A stretch of 64,000 bases of DNA from Escherichia phage vB_VIPECOOM01. The stretch lies in sequence record OQ721909, one strand, 5' to 3'. The translations under genes were made by a program, and so were the position numbers. The notes under the pieces were generated by a model. The model did not search any database. It was not told the origin of the DNA and saw only the letters and a list, made by a program, of their open reading frames with translations. Positions 2,395 to 37,042 of this stretch are shown here, in pieces; position 1 is the first letter of the stretch, and each line of letters opens with the position of its first letter.

Positions 2395-2554
2395 ATATCA
2401 AGAACCGTCATTGAAATGCAAAATAAAATTATTGAAATAAATCCATCTGGAGTGCTAAAGAATCCAATCCAACATGCTCTCGTGAATAGATAAAACGCTA
2501 GAAAAAGTATCACATATCCAAGAAATATCATTATATCAAACTCCGTATAAAGCT

Positions 2555-2573
2555 AAAGGGCCGAAGCCCTTTA
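2555..2573 (-). terminator. hairpin terminator-like element at 3' end of a-gt
   Basis: AAAGGGCCGAAGCCCTTTA hairpin. Confidence 0.5.
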
Positions 2574-3773
2574 TTTTGTAATAATGTCAAACTGTTCTTT
2601 AAAGCAGAAGCTTGAATCTTGATGCTGATACAAAAATTCATAAGCTTTTTCACGTTCACGGTCATAAAGAGCTCGGTCAGATGACAGTTCTTTAATACGT
2701 TCAAATGTTGATTCCATGTCATTTTCATCAAACCAAACGATACCGCTATCATGAGAAATTAATGGAGTATTATCAACACGGAATTTTAAATTTTCGCCAG
2801 TAGATTTCCAAAATACCGGAATTGTTCCACATGCACCAAGCTCGAGATGAGTATATTCTAAAGAACGCTGTAGATATTTTTTGTCCAACTTACTCAGCTG
2901 ATAACCAAATCCTGATTTACTCATGCGTTCAAGCATTTCGCTATTTACATAACGATCAAGAATTTGCGTTGGCAAATTAGGAGCAATTTTAATTTGGTCT
3001 ACTTGATGAAGACGATAATACTCGTATGGAATTCCTTTTTCTTTAATAGGAATGAACGCTGGAGAACGTTCCAGACCTTCCATAATAGTACTTAGTCCTG
3101 CAGGTTTAAGATGTTTTTCGTGAAAATCAAACATCTGATAAAAGCCTTTCCATGTAGTAGTACGACCAATCCAACGGTTGATATTCATGTTAATTTCAGA
3201 AACATCTTTCCAGTAAGTTGATCGAACCTTCGCAATATCCATAGGAGGCTGAAAGTTATATACGGTCGGTGCTTCTTCAATATCATCAAACAGAGAAACT
3301 GTTTCTGGATACCATTCTTTCATCAAAACTTTATTAAAGTCACCATTATCAGAATGGCTAAAAATAACATCAGCTCGACGAACAGTTTCTTCTAATCCCA
3401 AATTTCGGCGCAAAGAAAGAGAAGAATGGTCATGCTGATAAACTACAACACGAACCGAAGGTTTAATGTTATCAATAATTTTTTTATAGTTATTAATGGT
3501 GTCTTCTTCTACTGAAGTAGCAGGAACTGAATTGATAATTAGAATATCACAATCATTTACCAACTTAAGTGTTTTATCGTATTCTTTTGCCAATAAAACC
3601 GGAATTGAAAATGATTTATAATCATGCGCGCAATTACGGGTAAATGATTTATCTTTAGCATAAACCAAAGTTACTTCATGACCATTTTTAATAAACCAAT
3701 CACGCTGCTCAAGAGAAAATTTAGTTACACCGCAACCTTCAAGACCTCGAGCCATAAAAATACATACTTTCAT
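2571..3773 (-). CDS. a-gt: DNA alpha-glucosyltransferase (glucosylation of hydroxymethylcytosine)
   Basis: 400 aa; matches recalled T4 alpha-gt in length, position and sequence. Confidence 0.85.
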   Translation of the reverse strand: MKVCIFMARGLEGCGVTKFSLEQRDWFIKNGHEVTLVYAKDKSFTRNCAHDYKSFSIPVLLAKEYDKTLKLVNDCDILIINSVPATSVEEDTINNYKKIIDNIKPSVRVVVYQHDHSSLSLRRNLGLEETVRRADVIFSHSDNGDFNKVLMKEWYPETVSLFDDIEEAPTVYNFQPPMDIAKVRSTYWKDVSEINMNINRWIGRTTTWKGFYQMFDFHEKHLKPAGLSTIMEGLERSPAFIPIKEKGIPYEYYRLHQVDQIKIAPNLPTQILDRYVNSEMLERMSKSGFGYQLSKLDKKYLQRSLEYTHLELGACGTIPVFWKSTGENLKFRVDNTPLISHDSGIVWFDENDMESTFERIKELSSDRALYDREREKAYEFLYQHQDSSFCFKEQFDIITK

Positions 3774-3823
3774 TTAATATCCTCATTGTTTTGGTTTATT
3801 TTACCAAAAATTTATAAAGCAAT

Positions 3824-3843
3824 ATAGGAGCCTCGGCTCCTAT
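3824..3843 (-). terminator. hairpin terminator-like element
   Basis: ATAGGAGCC-TCG-GCTCCTAT hairpin followed by T-rich tract on minus strand. Confidence 0.45.
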
Positions 3844-4016
3844 CCGCATAATACGCCATACAGAGGCTCATTAGAGCTTCTAAATTTTATGCGCTTATAT
3901 GTTATAGTTCCTTCTGCTTTAGCTTTATCATGAGACGCTTTAAAGAGTCTCATCATTTCTACTTTAGAGGAACGAATTTTATTATAATCTGTTTCAGAAG
4001 TCTGGGTGTTCATCTT

Positions 4017-4223
4017 TCACAGTTGCCACCATTTTTTGACTTGATAAGAATCAACCCACACTTTCATATTAGGGTCTGCTCTTACAATAGGAGGATTAAC
4101 TTCTTTAATTGAACTATCATGGTATTCTTTTTCAGAAATTTTCACACAAAGATGACCATTCAAAGATTCAGTAAATCCTGCATTAATTTTAAGACGCTTG
4201 AATTTTACGCGTGTAAGCATCAA
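4017..4223 (-). CDS. hypothetical protein
   Basis: 68 aa ORF; overlaps next ORF. Confidence 0.4.
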   Translation of the reverse strand: MMLTRVKFKRLKINAGFTESLNGHLCVKISEKEYHDSSIKEVNPPIVRADPNMKVWVDSYQVKKWWQL

Positions 4224-4506
4224 TCATATCCTCAATCTGCGATCTAGTAGTCTTCCAAAGAATATTAATAAGTTCATCGTTATATGGCTGTTTTAGAATA
4301 TCCCGACTTTTCTTGATAGCATATTCGTATTGAGCAAAATTATTGTTTTCAGCTGCAATCTGAGCGTGCTTGTAAAGACGGTTCAGTTCGCGTTTGTTTT
4401 TAGACAATAACTTATTTGCTTTTCTTTCTGCTTCAAGACGGTTCTTTTCTTCAATAGAAGAAATAAGCTTTTCCACTTCATCATTAATTTCGGGTTTATC
4501 AGTCAT
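4189..4506 (-). CDS. hypothetical protein, predicted coiled coil
   Basis: 105 aa ORF downstream of gene 55. Confidence 0.5.
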   Translation of the reverse strand: MTDKPEINDEVEKLISSIEEKNRLEAERKANKLLSKNKRELNRLYKHAQIAAENNNFAQYEYAIKKSRDILKQPYNDELINILWKTTRSQIEDMIDAYTRKIQAS

Positions 4507-4507
4507 A

Positions 4508-4726
4508 TTATTTCTCTAATATAAAATAAAAATCATCATCTGTTAAATGATACCGATAGTTTAATTCTACACCATTAGATTTAAAAGCGGTATCATACGG
4601 ATTTTCTGGATCAATATCAATGTCAAGAGCTAAAACTTCCCTGAGATACATTTTAAGTAAATAGGGAATAGCTTCAACTTCAGGTATTTCTTCCAAGAAT
4701 CCGGAGAGGTTAATCGTTAGCCTCAT
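4508..4726 (-). CDS. hypothetical protein
   Basis: 72 aa acidic ORF, start overlaps end of gene 55. Confidence 0.45.
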
Positions 4727-5273
4727 ATAAAAAATCCAAACTAGGAGAATCGTCTACAACACTTTTCTTTTCAGCCCCTGGTGTTCTATAGGTTGATTCT
4801 TCGTAATGCGTCATTTTATCGTAGATGTCTTGAATAAAAGTTTCATCTACTAACGCAACCATATCGTCGTCACGACTGTCATAGACATTGTGAACGAAGT
4901 AACTGTATTTCTTTGCAACTTCCTTACGTTCTTTTTTAATACGTTGGACGAATGCATTAAAACAAGCTTGAGTTATATATGCATGTGGGTTTTTATATTT
5001 CGTTTCATCAAAATTATGAAGCCCCTTAATAGAAGCTTCTATACCATCTGCAATCATTTCTTGTTTCCAGGATTGGGTGTATCCTGAAAAGTTGAAACGT
5101 TTAGATAAGCCTTCTGCAATAAGCATAATGGCTAATCCGATAGTATCATTCTGACGAACTACTTTATTTGGGTCTTTATTATTTGCTAATTCTGTTTTCC
5201 AATCAATAATAGCTTGTAAAAGCTCTTTATTGTTTACGTAATTATATTTAGGCTTAGTTTCTGACATTTTCAC
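4710..5273 (-). CDS. 55: Late-promoter sigma factor gp55
   Basis: 187 aa; N-terminus [24 protein letters not shown] matches recalled T4 gp55. Confidence 0.93.
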
Positions 5274-5347
5274 CTCTTAGCTCAATTCATAGATCTATTA
5301 TATCATAATATTTGAAGATCTATCTTAAAGCATAGAGGATGAATCAG

Positions 5348-5617
5348 TTATCTAAGTAAACAGTATGCTTGGAATACTTTCTCCATCATCTTTTTAAATT
5401 CATGAATATCTATATAATGACTGGTTAAATCAGCATGATATAAAAAGTCTAAAAACTTTTCATGTGTGCTAACATATTCACTTTCATTTAATTCAGAAAC
5501 ATGGCTTTCCCAATATCCAACACCAGTCTTATTTGGGAAAAATGAAATTTTCATATATTGGTCAACATAGAAAATTCCATAATTTTCAATAGTAATAGAA
5601 ATATTAATAAATTTCAT
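5348..5617 (-). CDS. hypothetical protein
   Basis: 89 aa ORF in 55-nrdH accessory block. Confidence 0.5.
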   Translation of the reverse strand: MKFINISITIENYGIFYVDQYMKISFFPNKTGVGYWESHVSELNESEYVSTHEKFLDFLYHADLTSHYIDIHEFKKMMEKVFQAYCLLR

Positions 5618-30872: not shown

Positions 30873-31175
30873 TTATTTACCTTTAATTACTTTAGCTGCT
30901 TCGATAGCCGCTTGCTGAAGGTCATCCATAGACATACCGAATTTAGAAGCAAAGTTATCAATTTTCTTTTCGACAGCATTCAAAGGCTTGGCCTGTTTAC
31001 CTTCATTAGCGCCAGGAAGAGCGAGAATACGCTCTTTGTCAATATAAAGGCTTACAAGTTTCTTACGGTCTTTATCGGACAAATCATGAAATGAATGGGC
31101 CTTTTTATTTATAGCGGCTTCTAATTTACCTGCACTCACTCGCGCTTCAGCAATAAATTCTTGATATGTTTTCAT
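30873..31175 (-). CDS. ipII: Internal protein II (capsid-packaged)
   Basis: 100 aa; N-terminal MKTYQEFIAEA capsid-targeting leader. Confidence 0.85.
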   Translation of the reverse strand: MKTYQEFIAEARVSAGKLEAAINKKAHSFHDLSDKDRKKLVSLYIDKERILALPGANEGKQAKPLNAVEKKIDNFASKFGMSMDDLQQAAIEAAKVIKGK

Positions 31176-31283: not shown

Positions 31284-31862
31284 TTAAGAATTACCACGAG
31301 CTGCATTAGCAACGGCGTAAGCGTACTGAACATTAGCGTCTTTAAACGTACCTTTAGAGGTATCTAGTTCTGCCTTAAAGCCGCCTTTAGTCATAACATC
31401 GGCAAATTCTTTACGGAAAGCCATTGCATCAAGGCTTCTCCATGACGATTTGTGCTTGGCGAATTCAAGACCAGCGTAGTTGACAGCCTTAGCTAATTTA
31501 TTATCAATAACCCATTTACCTGCTTTAGGCACAAATACCGGGCCTTTCTGTTTAGAGAATAGTTTTAAATTCCAGCGACGAAGGTCACCGTCAGCTTTAA
31601 CAAAAGCTGCGTCCAAGTTACTAGCAACAACATCTTGAATATGGCCAAATTTAAGCCCATCAACTTCAATATTTAGATCGGTACGCCAGCGAAGTCCTTC
31701 CCAAGCGAAAGCTTTAAAGTCAGAAGCCTTTGTAGCTAAATACCGTTCAATAGTAGCTGTTTTAGGGTCAAAGCCGTTTCCTCGATAAGTCCACTCATCT
31801 TTATTAATTCCTTTGGCCTTTTCCACAGAAGCTTCAGCGATAAATTCTTTATACGTTTTCAT
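31284..31862 (-). CDS. ipIII: Internal protein III (capsid-packaged)
   Basis: 192 aa; N-terminal MKTYKEFIAEA leader. Confidence 0.85.
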   Translation of the reverse strand: MKTYKEFIAEASVEKAKGINKDEWTYRGNGFDPKTATIERYLATKASDFKAFAWEGLRWRTDLNIEVDGLKFGHIQDVVASNLDAAFVKADGDLRRWNLKLFSKQKGPVFVPKAGKWVIDNKLAKAVNYAGLEFAKHKSSWRSLDAMAFRKEFADVMTKGGFKAELDTSKGTFKDANVQYAYAVANAARGNS

Positions 31863-32474: not shown

Positions 32475-32930
32475 TTAAAAGAGGCTGTTCATTATTCGGT
32501 AAAGTGAAGGACCCATCACATATTGCCACTGAGTGCGAGGAATAAGAGCAAAAGCATCCATCTCTGGAATCATAACACCATCTTTATTTTCAAAATAAGA
32601 CTCGCAATGGCAATTTCTAAACATCTCATGCTCTACTGGAATCGTATAATAAAACAGCTGTAAGTCTTTATTACTAGAATATTTAAATACACCTAGGTCT
32701 TCTAGAAGGTCTGGATTATAATTGCTAAAACCGGTCTCTTCTAAGCATTCTCTTCGTGCTGCATCTAGTGCGTTTAAATCAGAATTTTCTACACGGCCTT
32801 TTGGAATATCCCAGCGATGTGCCATCATTCCAGGCTTACGAGAACCAGTAACCCGTCCCATGAATAAATCTTTATCTTCTGTCATAAAGATAATACCAGC
32901 TGATAATGTTTTCATTTTAATTTCCTGCAT
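32475..32930 (-). CDS. nudE: Nudix hydrolase
   Basis: 151 aa; Nudix box GRVENSDLNALDAARRECLEETGF. Confidence 0.85.
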   Translation of the reverse strand: MQEIKMKTLSAGIIFMTEDKDLFMGRVTGSRKPGMMAHRWDIPKGRVENSDLNALDAARRECLEETGFSNYNPDLLEDLGVFKYSSNKDLQLFYYTIPVEHEMFRNCHCESYFENKDGVMIPEMDAFALIPRTQWQYVMGPSLYRIMNSLF

Positions 32931-33400
32931 TCGGTGATAAAATTATTTAAATTTTGAGTATATTTCTTTTCATCAAAAATCTTTTGCTGCCTACGTAACC
33001 GCCATGGCATTTCAATGAACACGCACCATATTCCTGATAGTACTGCTGCTGTAAAAATATTAACAAGTATAATTAAAAGAATCCAATCTTCCGTTCTGCC
33101 TACTGGACTTTCTCCAAAGAAGCAAAATACAAATGATGTCACAGGAAAACTAATAATATACCACAGAATAACCTTCTTATCTGTGAACCAATCAGCGTTC
33201 GTTAACTTAGCGCGACCATTTCGAATACACACGAATTTATCATCTGTTACAGTAGATGGCTTAACTGCTTGATATCCCATTCTAAACTCCCTAATCAGCA
33301 AATTTTTCATATCTTCGGAACAGCCATTCCAGTCAACTCTATCGACTGAAATGCCATCGTCCCCATCATCTAAATCATACCAGCGAGTTTTTAAAATCAT
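32912..33400 (-). CDS. hypothetical membrane protein (CRK-tail family)
   Basis: 162 aa; two TM segments; C-terminal FITECRKLK. Confidence 0.55.
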   Translation of the reverse strand: MILKTRWYDLDDGDDGISVDRVDWNGCSEDMKNLLIREFRMGYQAVKPSTVTDDKFVCIRNGRAKLTNADWFTDKKVILWYIISFPVTSFVFCFFGESPVGRTEDWILLIILVNIFTAAVLSGIWCVFIEMPWRLRRQQKIFDEKKYTQNLNNFITECRKLK

Positions 33401-33759
33401 TTAATTTTCCTACAATCACTCACAAACTCTTCCATTGATTCTTTTTCAATATAAGACATGTAGTTATTATATTCCTTTAATTGTATTTTGTAATCCTTTT
33501 TTCTTTGCCAATTTATTTTAAAATTATCATAATGAAAATATAACATGGTACCAAAGAATGAAAATAATGAAATCGCTATAGTATAACGAAGTTCACTCCA
33601 AACCTCTGTTATAATTACTGTGCCGTCGATGTTTAAAATAATACAGTCAATTAACAATCCAATAAGACTACCAGCAAGAGCTGCAAATACTGACACGGCA
33701 AGAATTAATAGTGCCTCAGGAAACGAATATTTGACTTTATTTAGTTTTGGCTTTTGCAT
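33397..33759 (-). CDS. hypothetical membrane protein (CRK-tail family)
   Basis: 120 aa; two TM segments; C-terminal FVSDCRKIK. Confidence 0.55.
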   Translation of the reverse strand: MQKPKLNKVKYSFPEALLILAVSVFAALAGSLIGLLIDCIILNIDGTVIITEVWSELRYTIAISLFSFFGTMLYFHYDNFKINWQRKKDYKIQLKEYNNYMSYIEKESMEEFVSDCRKIK

Positions 33760-34154
33760 CGTGATTCCTTAACAAATTTCATAATTTCATTAAATTCATG
33801 CATATCAAGTTTAAGCTGGTGTTCCTTTTTAATCTTTTTACACTGAGCTTTCCATTCGCGTACGCGTTTACGATAATGTCTTCCTTGATACCAGTATCCT
33901 ACCCAATTTACAGGTACTAATAAAAGTGGAACTATTAATGGAAGAATTAGCATTAACACAAGTATTTCGCCAGAATCAATATCAGTCATAACATCTAAAA
34001 CACCTCCAATAATCAATAGAATCACAAATGATACAGCTACCACAGGACCTATTAATATATCAGTAGGAATTAGCCGGCGCTTTAATTCATACTTCACAGG
34101 TTTACTTGGAAGGTATAGTGATGGCTTTGACATATTCTCTACATTCCTTAACAA
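33741..34154 (-). CDS. hypothetical membrane protein (CRK-tail family)
   Basis: 137 aa; two TM segments; C-terminal FVKESRCK. Confidence 0.55.
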   Translation of the reverse strand: MLRNVENMSKPSLYLPSKPVKYELKRRLIPTDILIGPVVAVSFVILLIIGGVLDVMTDIDSGEILVLMLILPLIVPLLLVPVNWVGYWYQGRHYRKRVREWKAQCKKIKKEHQLKLDMHEFNEIMKFVKESRCKSQN

Positions 34155-34710
34155 ATTTTTCTAATAATAAATCGCTTTCAAAATTGGGATTTTCCACGAA
34201 TTTATCAAAAAGATCATCAACAATAGTCAAGATATTCTTTTTACTAAGAATACGCTTATTTTCATATTTTGTTTCAGAGTCAACTATAAGAGTAAAGAAA
34301 TATTTCTTTCCCTGAAATTTTACCGTAGTATCAATATAAAATAAATTTGACTTTTGTAAATTACGTCTAAACCCCGAGTCACTTAAACTATAAACGCCAA
34401 GATAATCATAATCGTCGTTTAAATAACAAACTGTCCATTCAGGAGAAATGAAATCAGTAAATTCAACATCAAAATCGCACGTCAATGAATGAATTGATTC
34501 AATACTGCTAATAAGTATTCCAGGACGTATTAAAGACTTTTTACCTCTATAAAATCTTCCAGAAAGACTTTCGTCAGTTTCATACGAAGACCCCCAATAG
34601 TAATTACGTCCTTCTGCCATACGTTTAAGAGCATTCAGTAATTGGTCTGGAACATCAACCTGTCTTTGGAACTCTTCAAACATTGAATTGAAATCATTTT
34701 GCATTCTCAT
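34102..34710 (-). CDS. hypothetical protein (CRK-tail family, soluble)
   Basis: 202 aa; C-terminal FVKECREYVK; followed by terminator. Confidence 0.55.
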   Translation of the reverse strand: MRMQNDFNSMFEEFQRQVDVPDQLLNALKRMAEGRNYYWGSSYETDESLSGRFYRGKKSLIRPGILISSIESIHSLTCDFDVEFTDFISPEWTVCYLNDDYDYLGVYSLSDSGFRRNLQKSNLFYIDTTVKFQGKKYFFTLIVDSETKYENKRILSKKNILTIVDDLFDKFVENPNFESDLLLEKFVKECREYVKAITIPSK

Positions 34711-34724
34711 TCCTATTTACTCCA

Positions 34725-34748
34725 AGTAATAGGGGCCGAAGCCCCTTA
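34725..34748 (-). terminator. rho-independent terminator
   Basis: AGGGGC-TTCG-GCCCCT hairpin on minus strand. Confidence 0.6.
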
Positions 34749-34751
34749 TCA

Positions 34752-35345
34752 TTATTTCAGAGAATTAATATATTCCTGGACATCAGCAGAAGTGGTTTCA
34801 ACCCCAGAAATATTACCGTTAAAGGTTTCAACTCGAGCAAGAGTATCTTCAATATCAACCTTAGTTAGCGCTGCGATTTCAACTACATCATCGGCAGTAC
34901 TAATTCCAAGGGCATTTGCCGCACGAGTTTCACGAATATATTCCAATTTAACTGCAAGTTCTTGGCGAGCATCATCTAACTCAACTACTTTCTTGGCGAT
35001 TTCAATTCGCATTTCAGCATAACCGTCAGCTTTAGTAGTCAACTGCTCAGCTGTTCGACGATATAGCAAACCGAGTTTAGCGTGCATTGTTACATCTTGA
35101 CCTTCGGAAAGAAGTTTACGAATTTCACGCTCTTTTGATTCGGCCTGTCGATTCTTTTCGACAATAAGTTCACGAATACGTTTTTCTTCATTAATAGATT
35201 TAACAGAAGCAGTTTTTAGATCTTTAATTTTATCAAGCAGTTTTGCTGCCGCAGCAGTATACTGTTCTTCAACAGATAGATTTTTAGCCATAGCAGAACC
35301 AAGTTTAGTGCGAATAAACTCAACAATTTTCTTCAGTGTGTTCAT
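34752..35345 (-). CDS. hypothetical coiled-coil protein
   Basis: 197 aa, highly helical/charged. Confidence 0.55.
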
Positions 35346-35388
35346 AGTATTTCCTTAGGTTAATTGAGATTTAAAATCTGTGGAAGAA

Positions 35389-35919
35389 TTATATCCCATT
35401 ATTTGAGAGATGTAAACTATTTTTAATTTTACAAATTCGTTCAGCTTCATCGATAGCAGCATTAATAATGCTTTTAGCTATAGGAGTACTAATACTAGTA
35501 GCTTTTACACTTAACACGATTTCTTTATCTTTACCAGGCCAACCCCATGATTTTTCACCGTGAGTGCCTTTAATTACAGCAGACACCTCAAGTGAGCGTC
35601 CATTATCATATGTTTTTACATTAACAACCCAAGGGTCACTTTTCTCAATCGGTTTCTCAACCGGTTTATCCCAGTAAATATTAAGAATGCGTGGGACATC
35701 AAATTTGGCAGGACAAATCTTAACCGTAAGACCTTCGCTTTCTAGCCAATTAATAAGAGGGCGTTCATACAGGCGACGATGTGGGCTTGGGATTCGACAA
35801 GCCTTATGTCCGTTGCTTGCGGCTTCACTAAGCTGTTCTAATACCTGCTTTTGCATTATTGATAAGATACCATCAAAAGATTTTTCGGAAATTTCATTCA
35901 GTTCGGTATAAAGAGACAT
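35389..35919 (-). CDS. hypothetical protein
   Basis: 176 aa ORF. Confidence 0.55.
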   Translation of the reverse strand: MSLYTELNEISEKSFDGILSIMQKQVLEQLSEAASNGHKACRIPSPHRRLYERPLINWLESEGLTVKICPAKFDVPRILNIYWDKPVEKPIEKSDPWVVNVKTYDNGRSLEVSAVIKGTHGEKSWGWPGKDKEIVLSVKATSISTPIAKSIINAAIDEAERICKIKNSLHLSNNGI

Positions 35920-36478: not shown

Positions 36479-37042
36479 TTATTTATCTAGTTTAGTTATT
36501 ATAGCTTCTGCGGCAGCTTTTAGCTTAGATGCGGTGTTAATACGATTTTTAATTTCAGTATACGCATCGCCAAGAACATCAAGGCTATCAGAATAAACAC
36601 TTACACTATTGCGTTCGCTATTTGAAATAGAACCTTTAGTTTTACGATCAAAATCGGTGTACACGTCTTGAAGATCACGGGCTGCCTTCTTTGCATCATC
36701 CAATGCGTCAAGAGCTTTATTCAAAGCATTAACGTATTTTTTAGTGTCGAACATATTCTTAGAAATTTTAACAGGTGCGCGTTCAGGAGTAGCTAATGCA
36801 GATTTAGGAACCTGAGCGCCAGATGCCAATTTCTTAGAAATTTTGAAAAACGCTTTATTGAATTTATTTTCTTGACTCATCGTAAAAGAACTATTATCGA
36901 TGTTGTACATTTCAATAGCTTTAGCTTTCCACTTAAGAAAATCGCCGCGGTCTTTTGGGTCCAAGTGGAAGAATACTTTAGTAAGATCTGCTTCAGATGG
37001 TAATTTTGCTGCTTCGGTTAAAAATTCGGCATAGGTTTTCAT
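36479..37042 (-). CDS. putative capsid-targeted internal protein (CTS leader, 187 aa)
   Basis: N-terminal MKTYAEFLTEA matches internal-protein leader with L-x-E cleavage site; flanked by terminator hairpins. Confidence 0.6.
   Translation of the reverse strand: MKTYAEFLTEAAKLPSEADLTKVFFHLDPKDRGDFLKWKAKAIEMYNIDNSSFTMSQENKFNKAFFKISKKLASGAQVPKSALATPERAPVKISKNMFDTKKYVNALNKALDALDDAKKAARDLQDVYTDFDRKTKGSISNSERNSVSVYSDSLDVLGDAYTEIKNRINTASKLKAAAEAIITKLDK

Follow-up and report, generated by a model that had tools for sequence, protein, structure and literature searches.

Four consecutive genes in a 64,000-nucleotide (nt) stretch of the genome of Escherichia phage vB_VIPECOOM01 (sequence record OQ721909; the whole stretch is called the window here) encode proteins that end, or nearly end, in the same short peptide. 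By sequence and gene order the phage belongs to Tequatrovirus, and the genes correspond to T4 e.2, e.3, e.4 and e.5. The general core of the peptide is Φ-x-x-F-[IV]-x-x-C-[RK], where Φ is a hydrophobic residue at position -3. We read this tail as a portable cytoplasmic docking helix by which e.5 and small inner-membrane proteins, in a set that varies, are tied to a single partner; the most plausible partner is the product of the adjacent gene e.6. We put this reading at a little short of an even chance. That the tail serves a common partner is the most economical reading, and this part of the initial annotation, which had suggested a common partner or a targeting signal, is plausible; membrane targeting is unlikely, because soluble proteins also carry the tail.

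All four genes lie on the minus strand. The product of e.2 (32912..33400; 162 amino acids, aa) has an N-terminal soluble domain, two transmembrane (TM) helices and a basic, predicted cytoplasmic tail ...NLNNFITECRKLK, with the C-terminus ...NNFITECRKLK and the motif L-N-N-F-I-T-E-C-R at 32924..32950. The e.3 protein (33397..33759; 120 aa), with two TM helices, has the tail ...SMEEFVSDCRKIK (C-terminus ...EEFVSDCRKIK; motif M-E-E-F-V-S-D-C-R at 33409..33435), and e.4 (33741..34133; 130 aa), also with two TM helices, has the tail ...EIMKFVKESRCKSQN, in which Ser replaces Cys (C-terminus ...MKFVKESRCKSQN; motif I-M-K-F-V-K-E-S-R at 33759..33785). The e.5 protein (34102..34710) is a 202-aa soluble alpha/beta protein whose motif, L-E-K-F-V-K-E-C-R at 34138..34164 according to the sequence and the family alignment, is placed in a C-terminal helix (residues 181-196); it ends ...EKFVKECREYVKAITIPSK, so that the motif stands 11 residues ahead of the stop, and these final 11 residues overlap the start of e.4. 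The four reading frames and the C-termini given for them in the initial annotation were exactly reproduced, and so were the lengths of 162, 120 and 202 aa, whereas the 137 aa given for e.4 had used an upstream TTG; the ATG that yields 130 aa is also the start annotated in T4. The description of the motif as the very C-terminus of all four proteins is right for e.2, e.3 and e.4 but not for e.5, and the form F-[VI]-x-[ED]-C-R-K, although its core is real, was over-specified, as only F, [IV], C, [RK] and the hydrophobic residue at -3 are general and the Glu and the trailing Lys are not general across relatives. In the e.4 family even the Cys position is often S, I, V, M or L. Three points below had no place in that annotation: the tail codons double as the ribosome binding site and start of the next gene, the motif is a hallmark of the e.5 family beyond T4, and a PspA/Vipp1-like gene lies ahead of the four.

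The motif is not there by chance. In the six-frame translation of the window, F[VI]x[ED][CS]R occurs five times, and four of these are the tails. The strict form F[IV]xxC[RK] is found within the last 21 residues of three open reading frames (ORFs) where 0.06 is expected from shuffled ORFs (record 1-96000, identical genome). The other 72 kb of the 168.5 kb genome have zero in-frame occurrences, and within that genome the tail is confined to this block. A hidden Markov model (HMM) of the tail that was trained solely on other phages ranks e.2, e.5 and e.3 of the window as numbers 1, 2 and 3 of 531 ORFs, and e.4 as the tenth.

The identity of the genes is well anchored. About 3 kb around the tail block match Escherichia phage vB_VIPECOOM03 with 100% identity and hundreds of Tequatrovirus genomes with 93-95%, and the proteins e.2-e.5 share 81-95% identity with their orthologues in the T4 group, while the e.3 orthologues of Mosigvirus share 39% and the e.4 orthologue of RB69 56%. 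The minus-strand order is e.8, e.7, e.6, e.5, e.4, e.3, e.2, nudE, e (lysozyme), ipIII and ipII, which places e.2-e.5 between e.6 and nudE/e with the strand and order they have in T4; in the old T4 GenBank entry L13089 the same genes are listed as msp7-msp4, within msp3-msp8 in the same order. Matches to PHROG families extend over nearly the whole proteins (2203 for e.2, E = 5e-78; 2330 for e.3, E = 5e-59; 2604 for e.4, E = 4.5e-70; 2607 for e.5, E = 2.7e-108), and PHROG 2203 is labelled 'membrane protein'. Scans of e.2-e.8 and nudE with Pfam, NCBIfam and PADLOC gave no family beyond NUDIX for nudE (32475..32930, minus strand; Pfam E = 1.9e-13), a Nudix hydrolase gene which starts in the tail codons of e.2 and is itself without a tail. 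Two newer Pfam entries seem to exist beyond the copy scanned, PF26876, which is tagged on relatives of e.5, and PF26873 'Phage_T4_Y06O', on an e.4-like protein. GenBank records of e.3 and e.4 orthologues often say 'sulfurtransferase' and those of e.6 orthologues 'host specificity protein'; these labels look like automatic ones that have been propagated, since no family scan backs either. In T4, e.2-e.6 are transcribed as early RNA and all five have been found as protein (PMC9697503, supplements). That these genes are expressed early and conserved across the Straboviridae, and yet have no assigned function in T4 despite decades of study, is one reason why the tail deserves attention.

Outside the window, the tail is present in 11 genera of Straboviridae, on at least four unrelated scaffolds, and each genome has from 1 to 6 bearers, as we call the proteins that carry it. 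The search for the motif in other phages that the initial annotation had proposed thus finds it conserved in homologues, and the possibility raised there, a coincidence of frame or low complexity that is not conserved in relatives, is contradicted by the conservation in the homologues of these 11 genera. RB69 (Mosigvirus) has e.5 (QFIMECREY), e.4 (EFVKEIRCK), e.3 (NFIKECRK) and e.2 (RFITECRNLR), the last of which lies away from e.3 with a different gene downstream, and in addition a fifth, newly recognised two-TM bearer, ORF133c (NFIKECRGK). In TH15 (Gaprivervirus) there are bearers of the e.5, e.4 and e.3 types, and in CLBP2 (Dhakavirus) of the e.5, e.3 and e.2 types, without e.4. Four tail-bearing proteins are found in pKp20 (Jiaodavirus) and in KLB31 (Kanagawavirus), where one is a small soluble protein of 96 aa, five in CF1 (Moonvirus) and five or six in PG7 (Karamvirus). 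The e.5 homologue of PG7 (locus L014, 7610-8278) is split in three overlapping ORFs by frameshifts or sequencing errors, and its final fragment retains the tail SDFINYCRGQ. In Aeromonas phage 44RR and in RB43 the sole bearer is the protein directly downstream of e.6 (LFVDYCRR and KFIHSCKK, respectively), CC2 has two copies downstream of e.6 (SFVNYC and SFVDYC), and an unrelated metagenomic contig has the order e.6, e.5 (MFIESCRAS) and an e.4-like gene (MFVKQLK). The order e.6, e.5, membrane proteins holds in 9 of the 12 contexts that were read, the others being 44RR, RB43 and CC2 with e.6 and e.5-type proteins only.

The e.5 family shows most clearly what is kept. When the proteins at the e.5 position are aligned across genera (12-49% identity), F186 and C190 are the sole invariant columns, and N98 is the second nearly invariant residue. 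An exhaustive search of 1.84 billion representative sequences with an e.5-family HMM found just 17 members; those representatives that reach the C-terminus have F[IV]xxC in 14 of 14 cases and C-R in 13 of 14. In the e.5 family the motif is followed by 7 to 30 further residues and is for this reason not a free C-terminal tag, and a C-terminal signal for degradation or sorting by a host protease or insertase (for instance one resembling the basic ClpX-type motifs, or one read by FtsH) becomes very doubtful. The strongly basic end of most bearers (…CRKLK, …CRK, …CRIKR, …RRK) lies where such a signal would, and early-made proteins may need to be removed later, but soluble and membrane bearers carry it alike, and conservation falls on the internal F, I and C, not on the terminal residues.

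The scaffolds under the tail are an alpha/beta domain in e.5, two-TM hairpins, e.2 with its N-terminal domain, and small soluble proteins, and the genes for all of them belong to the block that follows e.6. Pairwise BLAST of the four window proteins found nothing beyond the tail and a short N-terminal stretch of e.3 and e.4. With the tails removed, profile-profile comparison relates e.3 to e.4 with a probability of 76% (E = 2e-5; reversed control 0.9%), which gives modest support for a common ancestry of these two, and all other pairs of bearers score no better than their reversed controls. The initial view of otherwise diverged proteins therefore holds for most pairs, which show no detectable relationship, but not entirely for e.3 and e.4. 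By sequence comparison, then, the tail behaves as a portable module. As to topology, TM segments were called from Kyte-Doolittle hydropathy with a cutoff of 1.6, and e.2 (residues 77-95 and 106-124) and e.4 have two such segments, e.3 one strong and one weaker, and e.5 none. The prediction of two helices in each of three proteins beside a soluble fourth agrees with this for e.2, e.4 and e.5, whereas the second segment of e.3 (residues 59-77) is merely moderately hydrophobic, its mean value of about 1.1 (calculated by hand) being under the cutoff. The N- and C-termini of the membrane bearers are basic and the loops between the TM segments acidic, and by the positive-inside rule the tails are therefore predicted to be cytoplasmic, as the initial annotation had assumed. 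A membrane-insertion signal can be set aside, because both soluble and membrane proteins carry the tail.

An origin at the level of RNA had to be excluded, because the codons of each tail in the window contain the Shine-Dalgarno sequence of the next gene. In e.2 and e.3 it is the Arg-Lys codons AGGAAA, which serve nudE and e.2, and in e.4 the Lys-Glu codons AAGGAA, which serve e.3; each start is preceded, at a distance of 5-10 nt, by AGGAAA or AAGGAA, and in all four genes the next start codon comes 0-3 codons after the tail Arg. Stop and start overlap as ATGA at e.3/e.2 and at e.2/nudE, an arrangement expected of translational coupling, the ATG of e.3 lies 19 nt inside the preceding gene, within the Arg-Cys codons of e.4, and the ATG of e.4 lies 32 nt inside the gene before it. 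One could thus argue that constraint on Shine-Dalgarno sequence and start codon alone has produced similar peptides, and the residues that follow C-R (K, E, G and R), being purine-rich, do fit this, as does the likeness of the e.3 and e.5 start regions. We nevertheless consider it the least probable of all explanations, hardly to be credited, as F, I/V and C are not needed for a Shine-Dalgarno sequence, which moreover falls at varying positions of the motif in different genes, and dozens of other gene pairs overlap in the genome without having the motif. In 37 tails counted across the phages the synonymous codons vary freely: Phe is TTT in 23 and TTC in 12, Cys is TGC in 14 and TGT in 15, and Arg uses all six codons (AGG 5, AGA 11, CGA 4, CGT 6, CGC 3, CGG 2). 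The motif is also kept in 44RR, which has no overlapping gene downstream of it, and in KLB31 and RB43, in which 17-30 residues separate it from the stop. Codon usage and the tails without an overlapping downstream gene led us to reject a mere ribosome-binding-site artefact, and an RNA element was rejected because the junction RNAs show no unusual structure (z-scores -1.1 to +1.3). Since the conserved residues are not required by the Shine-Dalgarno sequence, synonymous codons vary and the motif persists without overlap, selection acts on the peptide, and any influence of the Shine-Dalgarno sequence is probably limited to the purine-rich residues that follow C-R. For annotation pipelines this means that a true protein motif and the translation start of the next gene can share codons.

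The likeness of the two start regions takes the form AGGAAT-N5-ATGCAAAA, at 33752-33769 and 34697-34714, with 83% identity over 18 nt. The start of e.5 resembles that of e.3 although no tail-bearing gene precedes e.5.

Each gene is a translationally coupled cassette with a similar junction at its end, and the junctions resemble one another because the end of every gene combines tail codons with a Shine-Dalgarno sequence and an ATG. What such junctions permit can be seen in CLBP2, whose e.5 matches that of Gaprivervirus until a repeated AARGRGGTYCRMAATG, after which the sequence is that of the e.4 end and the e.3 start, so that the protein ends in a hybrid e.5/e.4 tail. On comparison of the sequences, e.4 was cleanly excised by recombination between two junctions. 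Junctions of this kind act as break-points at which cassettes are lost, one way in which genes are turned over. Repeated regulatory cassettes are known sites of module shuffling in T4-type phages (PMC2839356, PMC4122927). The PeSL cassettes are comparable in that short repeats at gene boundaries mediate gain and loss in the plastic regions of T4-type genomes, as e.4 was lost at a repeated junction here, but PeSLs are intergenic and consist of an early promoter and a stem-loop, whereas the tail junctions lie inside coding sequence, are conserved as protein and have no match to a promoter or terminator and no hairpin. With the crossover of CLBP2, this shuffling and a number of bearers that varies from 1 to 6 per genome in mind, one might regard the tail as a DNA-level linker for cassette shuffling, gain and loss, with conservation of the peptide as a secondary effect. 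This we find scarcely probable. The tails of one genome have minimal nucleotide identity to each other, the only exact repeat between any two tails of the window being 16 nt long (AAATTTGTTAAGGAAT, no strand assigned, at 33764..33779 in the tail of e.4 and identically at 34143..34158 in that of e.5), synonymous sites are free while the amino acids are fixed, and genomes that have one bearer only also conserve the motif. An explanation by DNA repeats was rejected on account of that single 16-nt repeat.

That the peptide is the sole thing that unrelated neighbours share points to one common receptor, as with the encapsulation peptides of microcompartments and the cargo-loading peptides of encapsulins, where a short and probably helical terminal peptide is common to unrelated co-located proteins. 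The candidate that we favour is e.6 (34752..35345, minus strand), a helical protein of 197 aa encoded directly upstream of e.5, with a predicted PspA/Vipp1/ESCRT-III-like fold. The gene is the best conserved of the block and is found in 1,105 phage records, which range from phages of Escherichia to those of Aeromonas. It is preceded by a near-consensus early promoter of the sigma-70 type (35388..35416, minus strand; TTTACA, 17 nt, TATAAT; 11 of 12 matches), and the T4 record L13089 marks -35 and -10 signals at the equivalent place. The five genes after e.6 are joined by overlapping stops and starts and belong to the same transcription unit. Between e.6 and e.5 there is a small GC-rich hairpin (34731..34746, minus strand; a putative stem_loop in L13089), which is not an obvious terminator since it is without a strong U tract.

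The AlphaFold2 (AF2) model of e.6 has a predicted local distance difference test (pLDDT) score of 73, with about 90 in the hairpin, and its helices at 3-22, 25-80, 86-145, 165-175 and 186-196 give the predicted layout of the ESCRT-III fold, in which a helix at the N-terminus is followed by a long, confidently modelled hairpin and by short helices at the C-terminus. When the model was searched against the PDB with Foldseek, the top 8 matches were Vipp1 (probability 1.0, best E = 9e-4), followed by archaeal CdvB2; a profile of e.6 gave weak colinear matches to Vipp1 (E = 1.8-4) and phmmer found nothing in the PDB. With moderate confidence we assign e.6, from its predicted structure, as a PspA/Vipp1/ESCRT-III-like protein. 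Its annotations are otherwise hypothetical or, wrongly, 'host specificity protein', and one GenBank annotator wrote 'shock protein A'. In ESCRT-III and Vipp1 polymers a short C-terminal helix packs on the hairpin of the neighbouring subunit. The C-terminus of e.6, a conserved [VI]-x-x-Y-[IL]-x-S-L-K kept in 22 of 26 relatives, has the hydrophobic spacing of the tails, and in this it recalls helix alpha-5 and the MIM-type helices of ESCRT-III, with the difference that the Cys of the tails is Leu in e.6. At the C-terminus such a spacing pattern occurs in only 4 of 152 genes, and three of the four belong to this block. The tail HMM fails to retrieve e.6, and the resemblance is for that reason one of spacing only, to be taken as a lead.

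What makes e.6 the candidate is its invariant linkage to the bearers together with the analogy to the Psp and Lia systems. LiaI is a small two-TM protein, as are e.3 and e.4. In the Psp (E. coli, Yersinia) and Lia (Bacillus) systems small inner-membrane proteins recruit ESCRT-III-fold polymers, PspB/PspC for PspA and LiaI for LiaH (PMC7619361). The block resembles these in that e.6, with its Vipp1-like predicted fold, heads an operon of two-TM proteins with cytoplasmic C-terminal helices, i.e. small inner-membrane proteins of the same transcription unit with a predicted cytoplasmic segment. By this analogy e.5 and the variable membrane anchors may bind one shared partner through the tail helix; the partner would be the polymer-forming e.6, and the membrane bearers would serve as its adaptors at the inner membrane, as PspB/PspC do for PspA and LiaI for LiaH. 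Docking and the identity of the partner are both inferred. The two-TM anchors differ from the Psp and Lia proteins in that the phage has several interchangeable ones, together with soluble bearers that share one peptide, which is undescribed for Psp/Lia, and in that the T4-type block is phage-encoded and early-expressed, with a binding that we infer.

Several observations weigh against a docking helix for e.6. The model Pfam PspA_IM30 matches neither e.6 nor any of 26 members of its family, even at E <= 10, so the assignment leans on the predicted fold and a weak profile, and for long helical hairpins a similar architecture can be enough to produce a match. Neither do e.2, e.3 and e.4 resemble PspB, PspC or LiaI (Pfam/NCBIfam, nothing beyond noise at E <= 0.1). 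The amphipathicity of the tails is moderate, being equalled by 8-28% of shuffled sequences, and the predicted model of e.5 (AF2, pLDDT 56.5) is too poor to tell a free tail helix from a packed one. Individual bearers must also be dispensable in the laboratory, at least e.2, so far as T4's own e.2 is truncated: it is annotated as 102 aa (309 nt; L13089 2927-3235) and stops ahead of the second TM helix and the tail, and as vB_VIPECOOM01 carries an intact e.2 of 162 aa, the laboratory allele looks like the truncated one. Finally, a near-invariant Cys is not explained by plain helix docking, and conversely the tails of the e.4 family have S, I, V, M or L in its place.

The unexplained Cys therefore keeps two other explanations alive. 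According to the first, the tails would bind one another and link e.5 with the membrane proteins through a mixed bundle of helices, in which the Cys might form a metal site, a disulfide or a redox-sensitive clasp. Each bearer has a single conserved Cys with a basic residue after it, e.5 has no invariants other than F and C, several bearers are always encoded together, and the hydrophobic positions (-3, 0, +1 and +4) match heptad spacing. We still think it unlikely, although it deserves to be kept in mind: the e.4 family has S, I, V, M or L at the aligned position, disulfides are unfavoured in the cytoplasm and no metal-binding family was matched in Pfam or NCBIfam; moreover, a hetero-bundle cannot be the ancestral role, because 44RR and RB43 have e.5 as their lone bearer. 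The second would make the Cys-Arg dyad a site of chemistry, either a target that is modified covalently (a T4 ADP-ribosyltransferase, acylation or persulfidation being examples) or an active site in e.5 of which the membrane proteins have a substrate-like copy. That the C-[RK] pair is the most conserved feature of e.5, that the near-invariant N98 could sit close by, and the 'sulfurtransferase' labels on e.3 and e.4 orthologues, unconfirmed and probably automatic, can be cited for it, but Pfam, NCBIfam and PADLOC give no enzyme family, the e.4-type tails do without Cys, and the conserved F-[IV] with a hydrophobic residue at -3 suits packing better than modification. This explanation is rather improbable.

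A more far-reaching form of the docking reading, which we offer as a speculation of low probability but not a negligible one, is that T4-type phages encode their own ESCRT-III/PspA-like membrane system, in which e.6 would be the polymer, e.5 a universal soluble co-factor and the two-TM proteins fast-evolving, cassette-exchangeable adaptors, all of which plug into e.6 by one peptide for early stabilising or remodelling of the inner membrane. In such a system the tail may mimic the C-terminal helix of e.6 itself, and the system might, for example, counter membrane-depolarising abortive-infection defences or damage from superinfection. We found no description of the tail motif, or of a phage PspA/ESCRT-III-like e.6, in the literature open to search. 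Should e.6 be the partner, this would, as far as our searches show, be an undescribed virus-encoded ESCRT-III-type system with modular adaptors, with a bearing on how phages protect or exploit the inner membrane of the host. In any case, a nine-residue peptide that is the sole invariant feature of e.5 and that has been copied onto unrelated membrane proteins is a cheap experimental handle.

The likeness to other terminal targeting peptides has its limits, as no shell or capsid receptor is implicated for the tails, all bearers of the window but e.5 are integral membrane proteins and the Cys has no counterpart. The capsid targeting sequence of T4, MKTYxEF[IL]xE, does hold an F-[IL]-x-E element, but it is N-terminal and cleaved by the prohead protease, while the tails are C-terminal and without the MKTY context; kinship between the two was rejected for the wrong terminus and the wrong context. 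Capsid targeting sequences do occur in the window, in ipII (30873-31175), in ipIII (31284-31862) and in an ORF of 187 aa (36479-37042, minus strand) that starts MKTYAEFLTEA.

Two further groups of genes were seen between e.3 and e.2 in related phages. One is a pair of conserved proteins of about 228 aa (ending ...YLEFPMEGW) and about 318 aa (starting MMLVIGSRALH...), of unassigned function, which is present in Mosig-, Dhaka-, Kanagawa-, Moon- and Karamvirus and not in this Tequatrovirus block (RB69 2396-4415; locus L008 3386-5629; L010 3257-5564; L011 4214-5867). The other is a second tandem family with a tail of its own, of three to five small soluble proteins per genome with the C-terminus W-[VY]-[SA]-S-[SP]-x-x-C (e.g. 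WVSSSEMC, WVSSSSEC, WVSSSYEC and WYTSSMSC). It has no member at that position in the window, and sits between e.3 and e.2 in many genera, its loci being RB69 4746-5541, TH15 4191-5448, L010 6404-7478 and L011 6451-7004.

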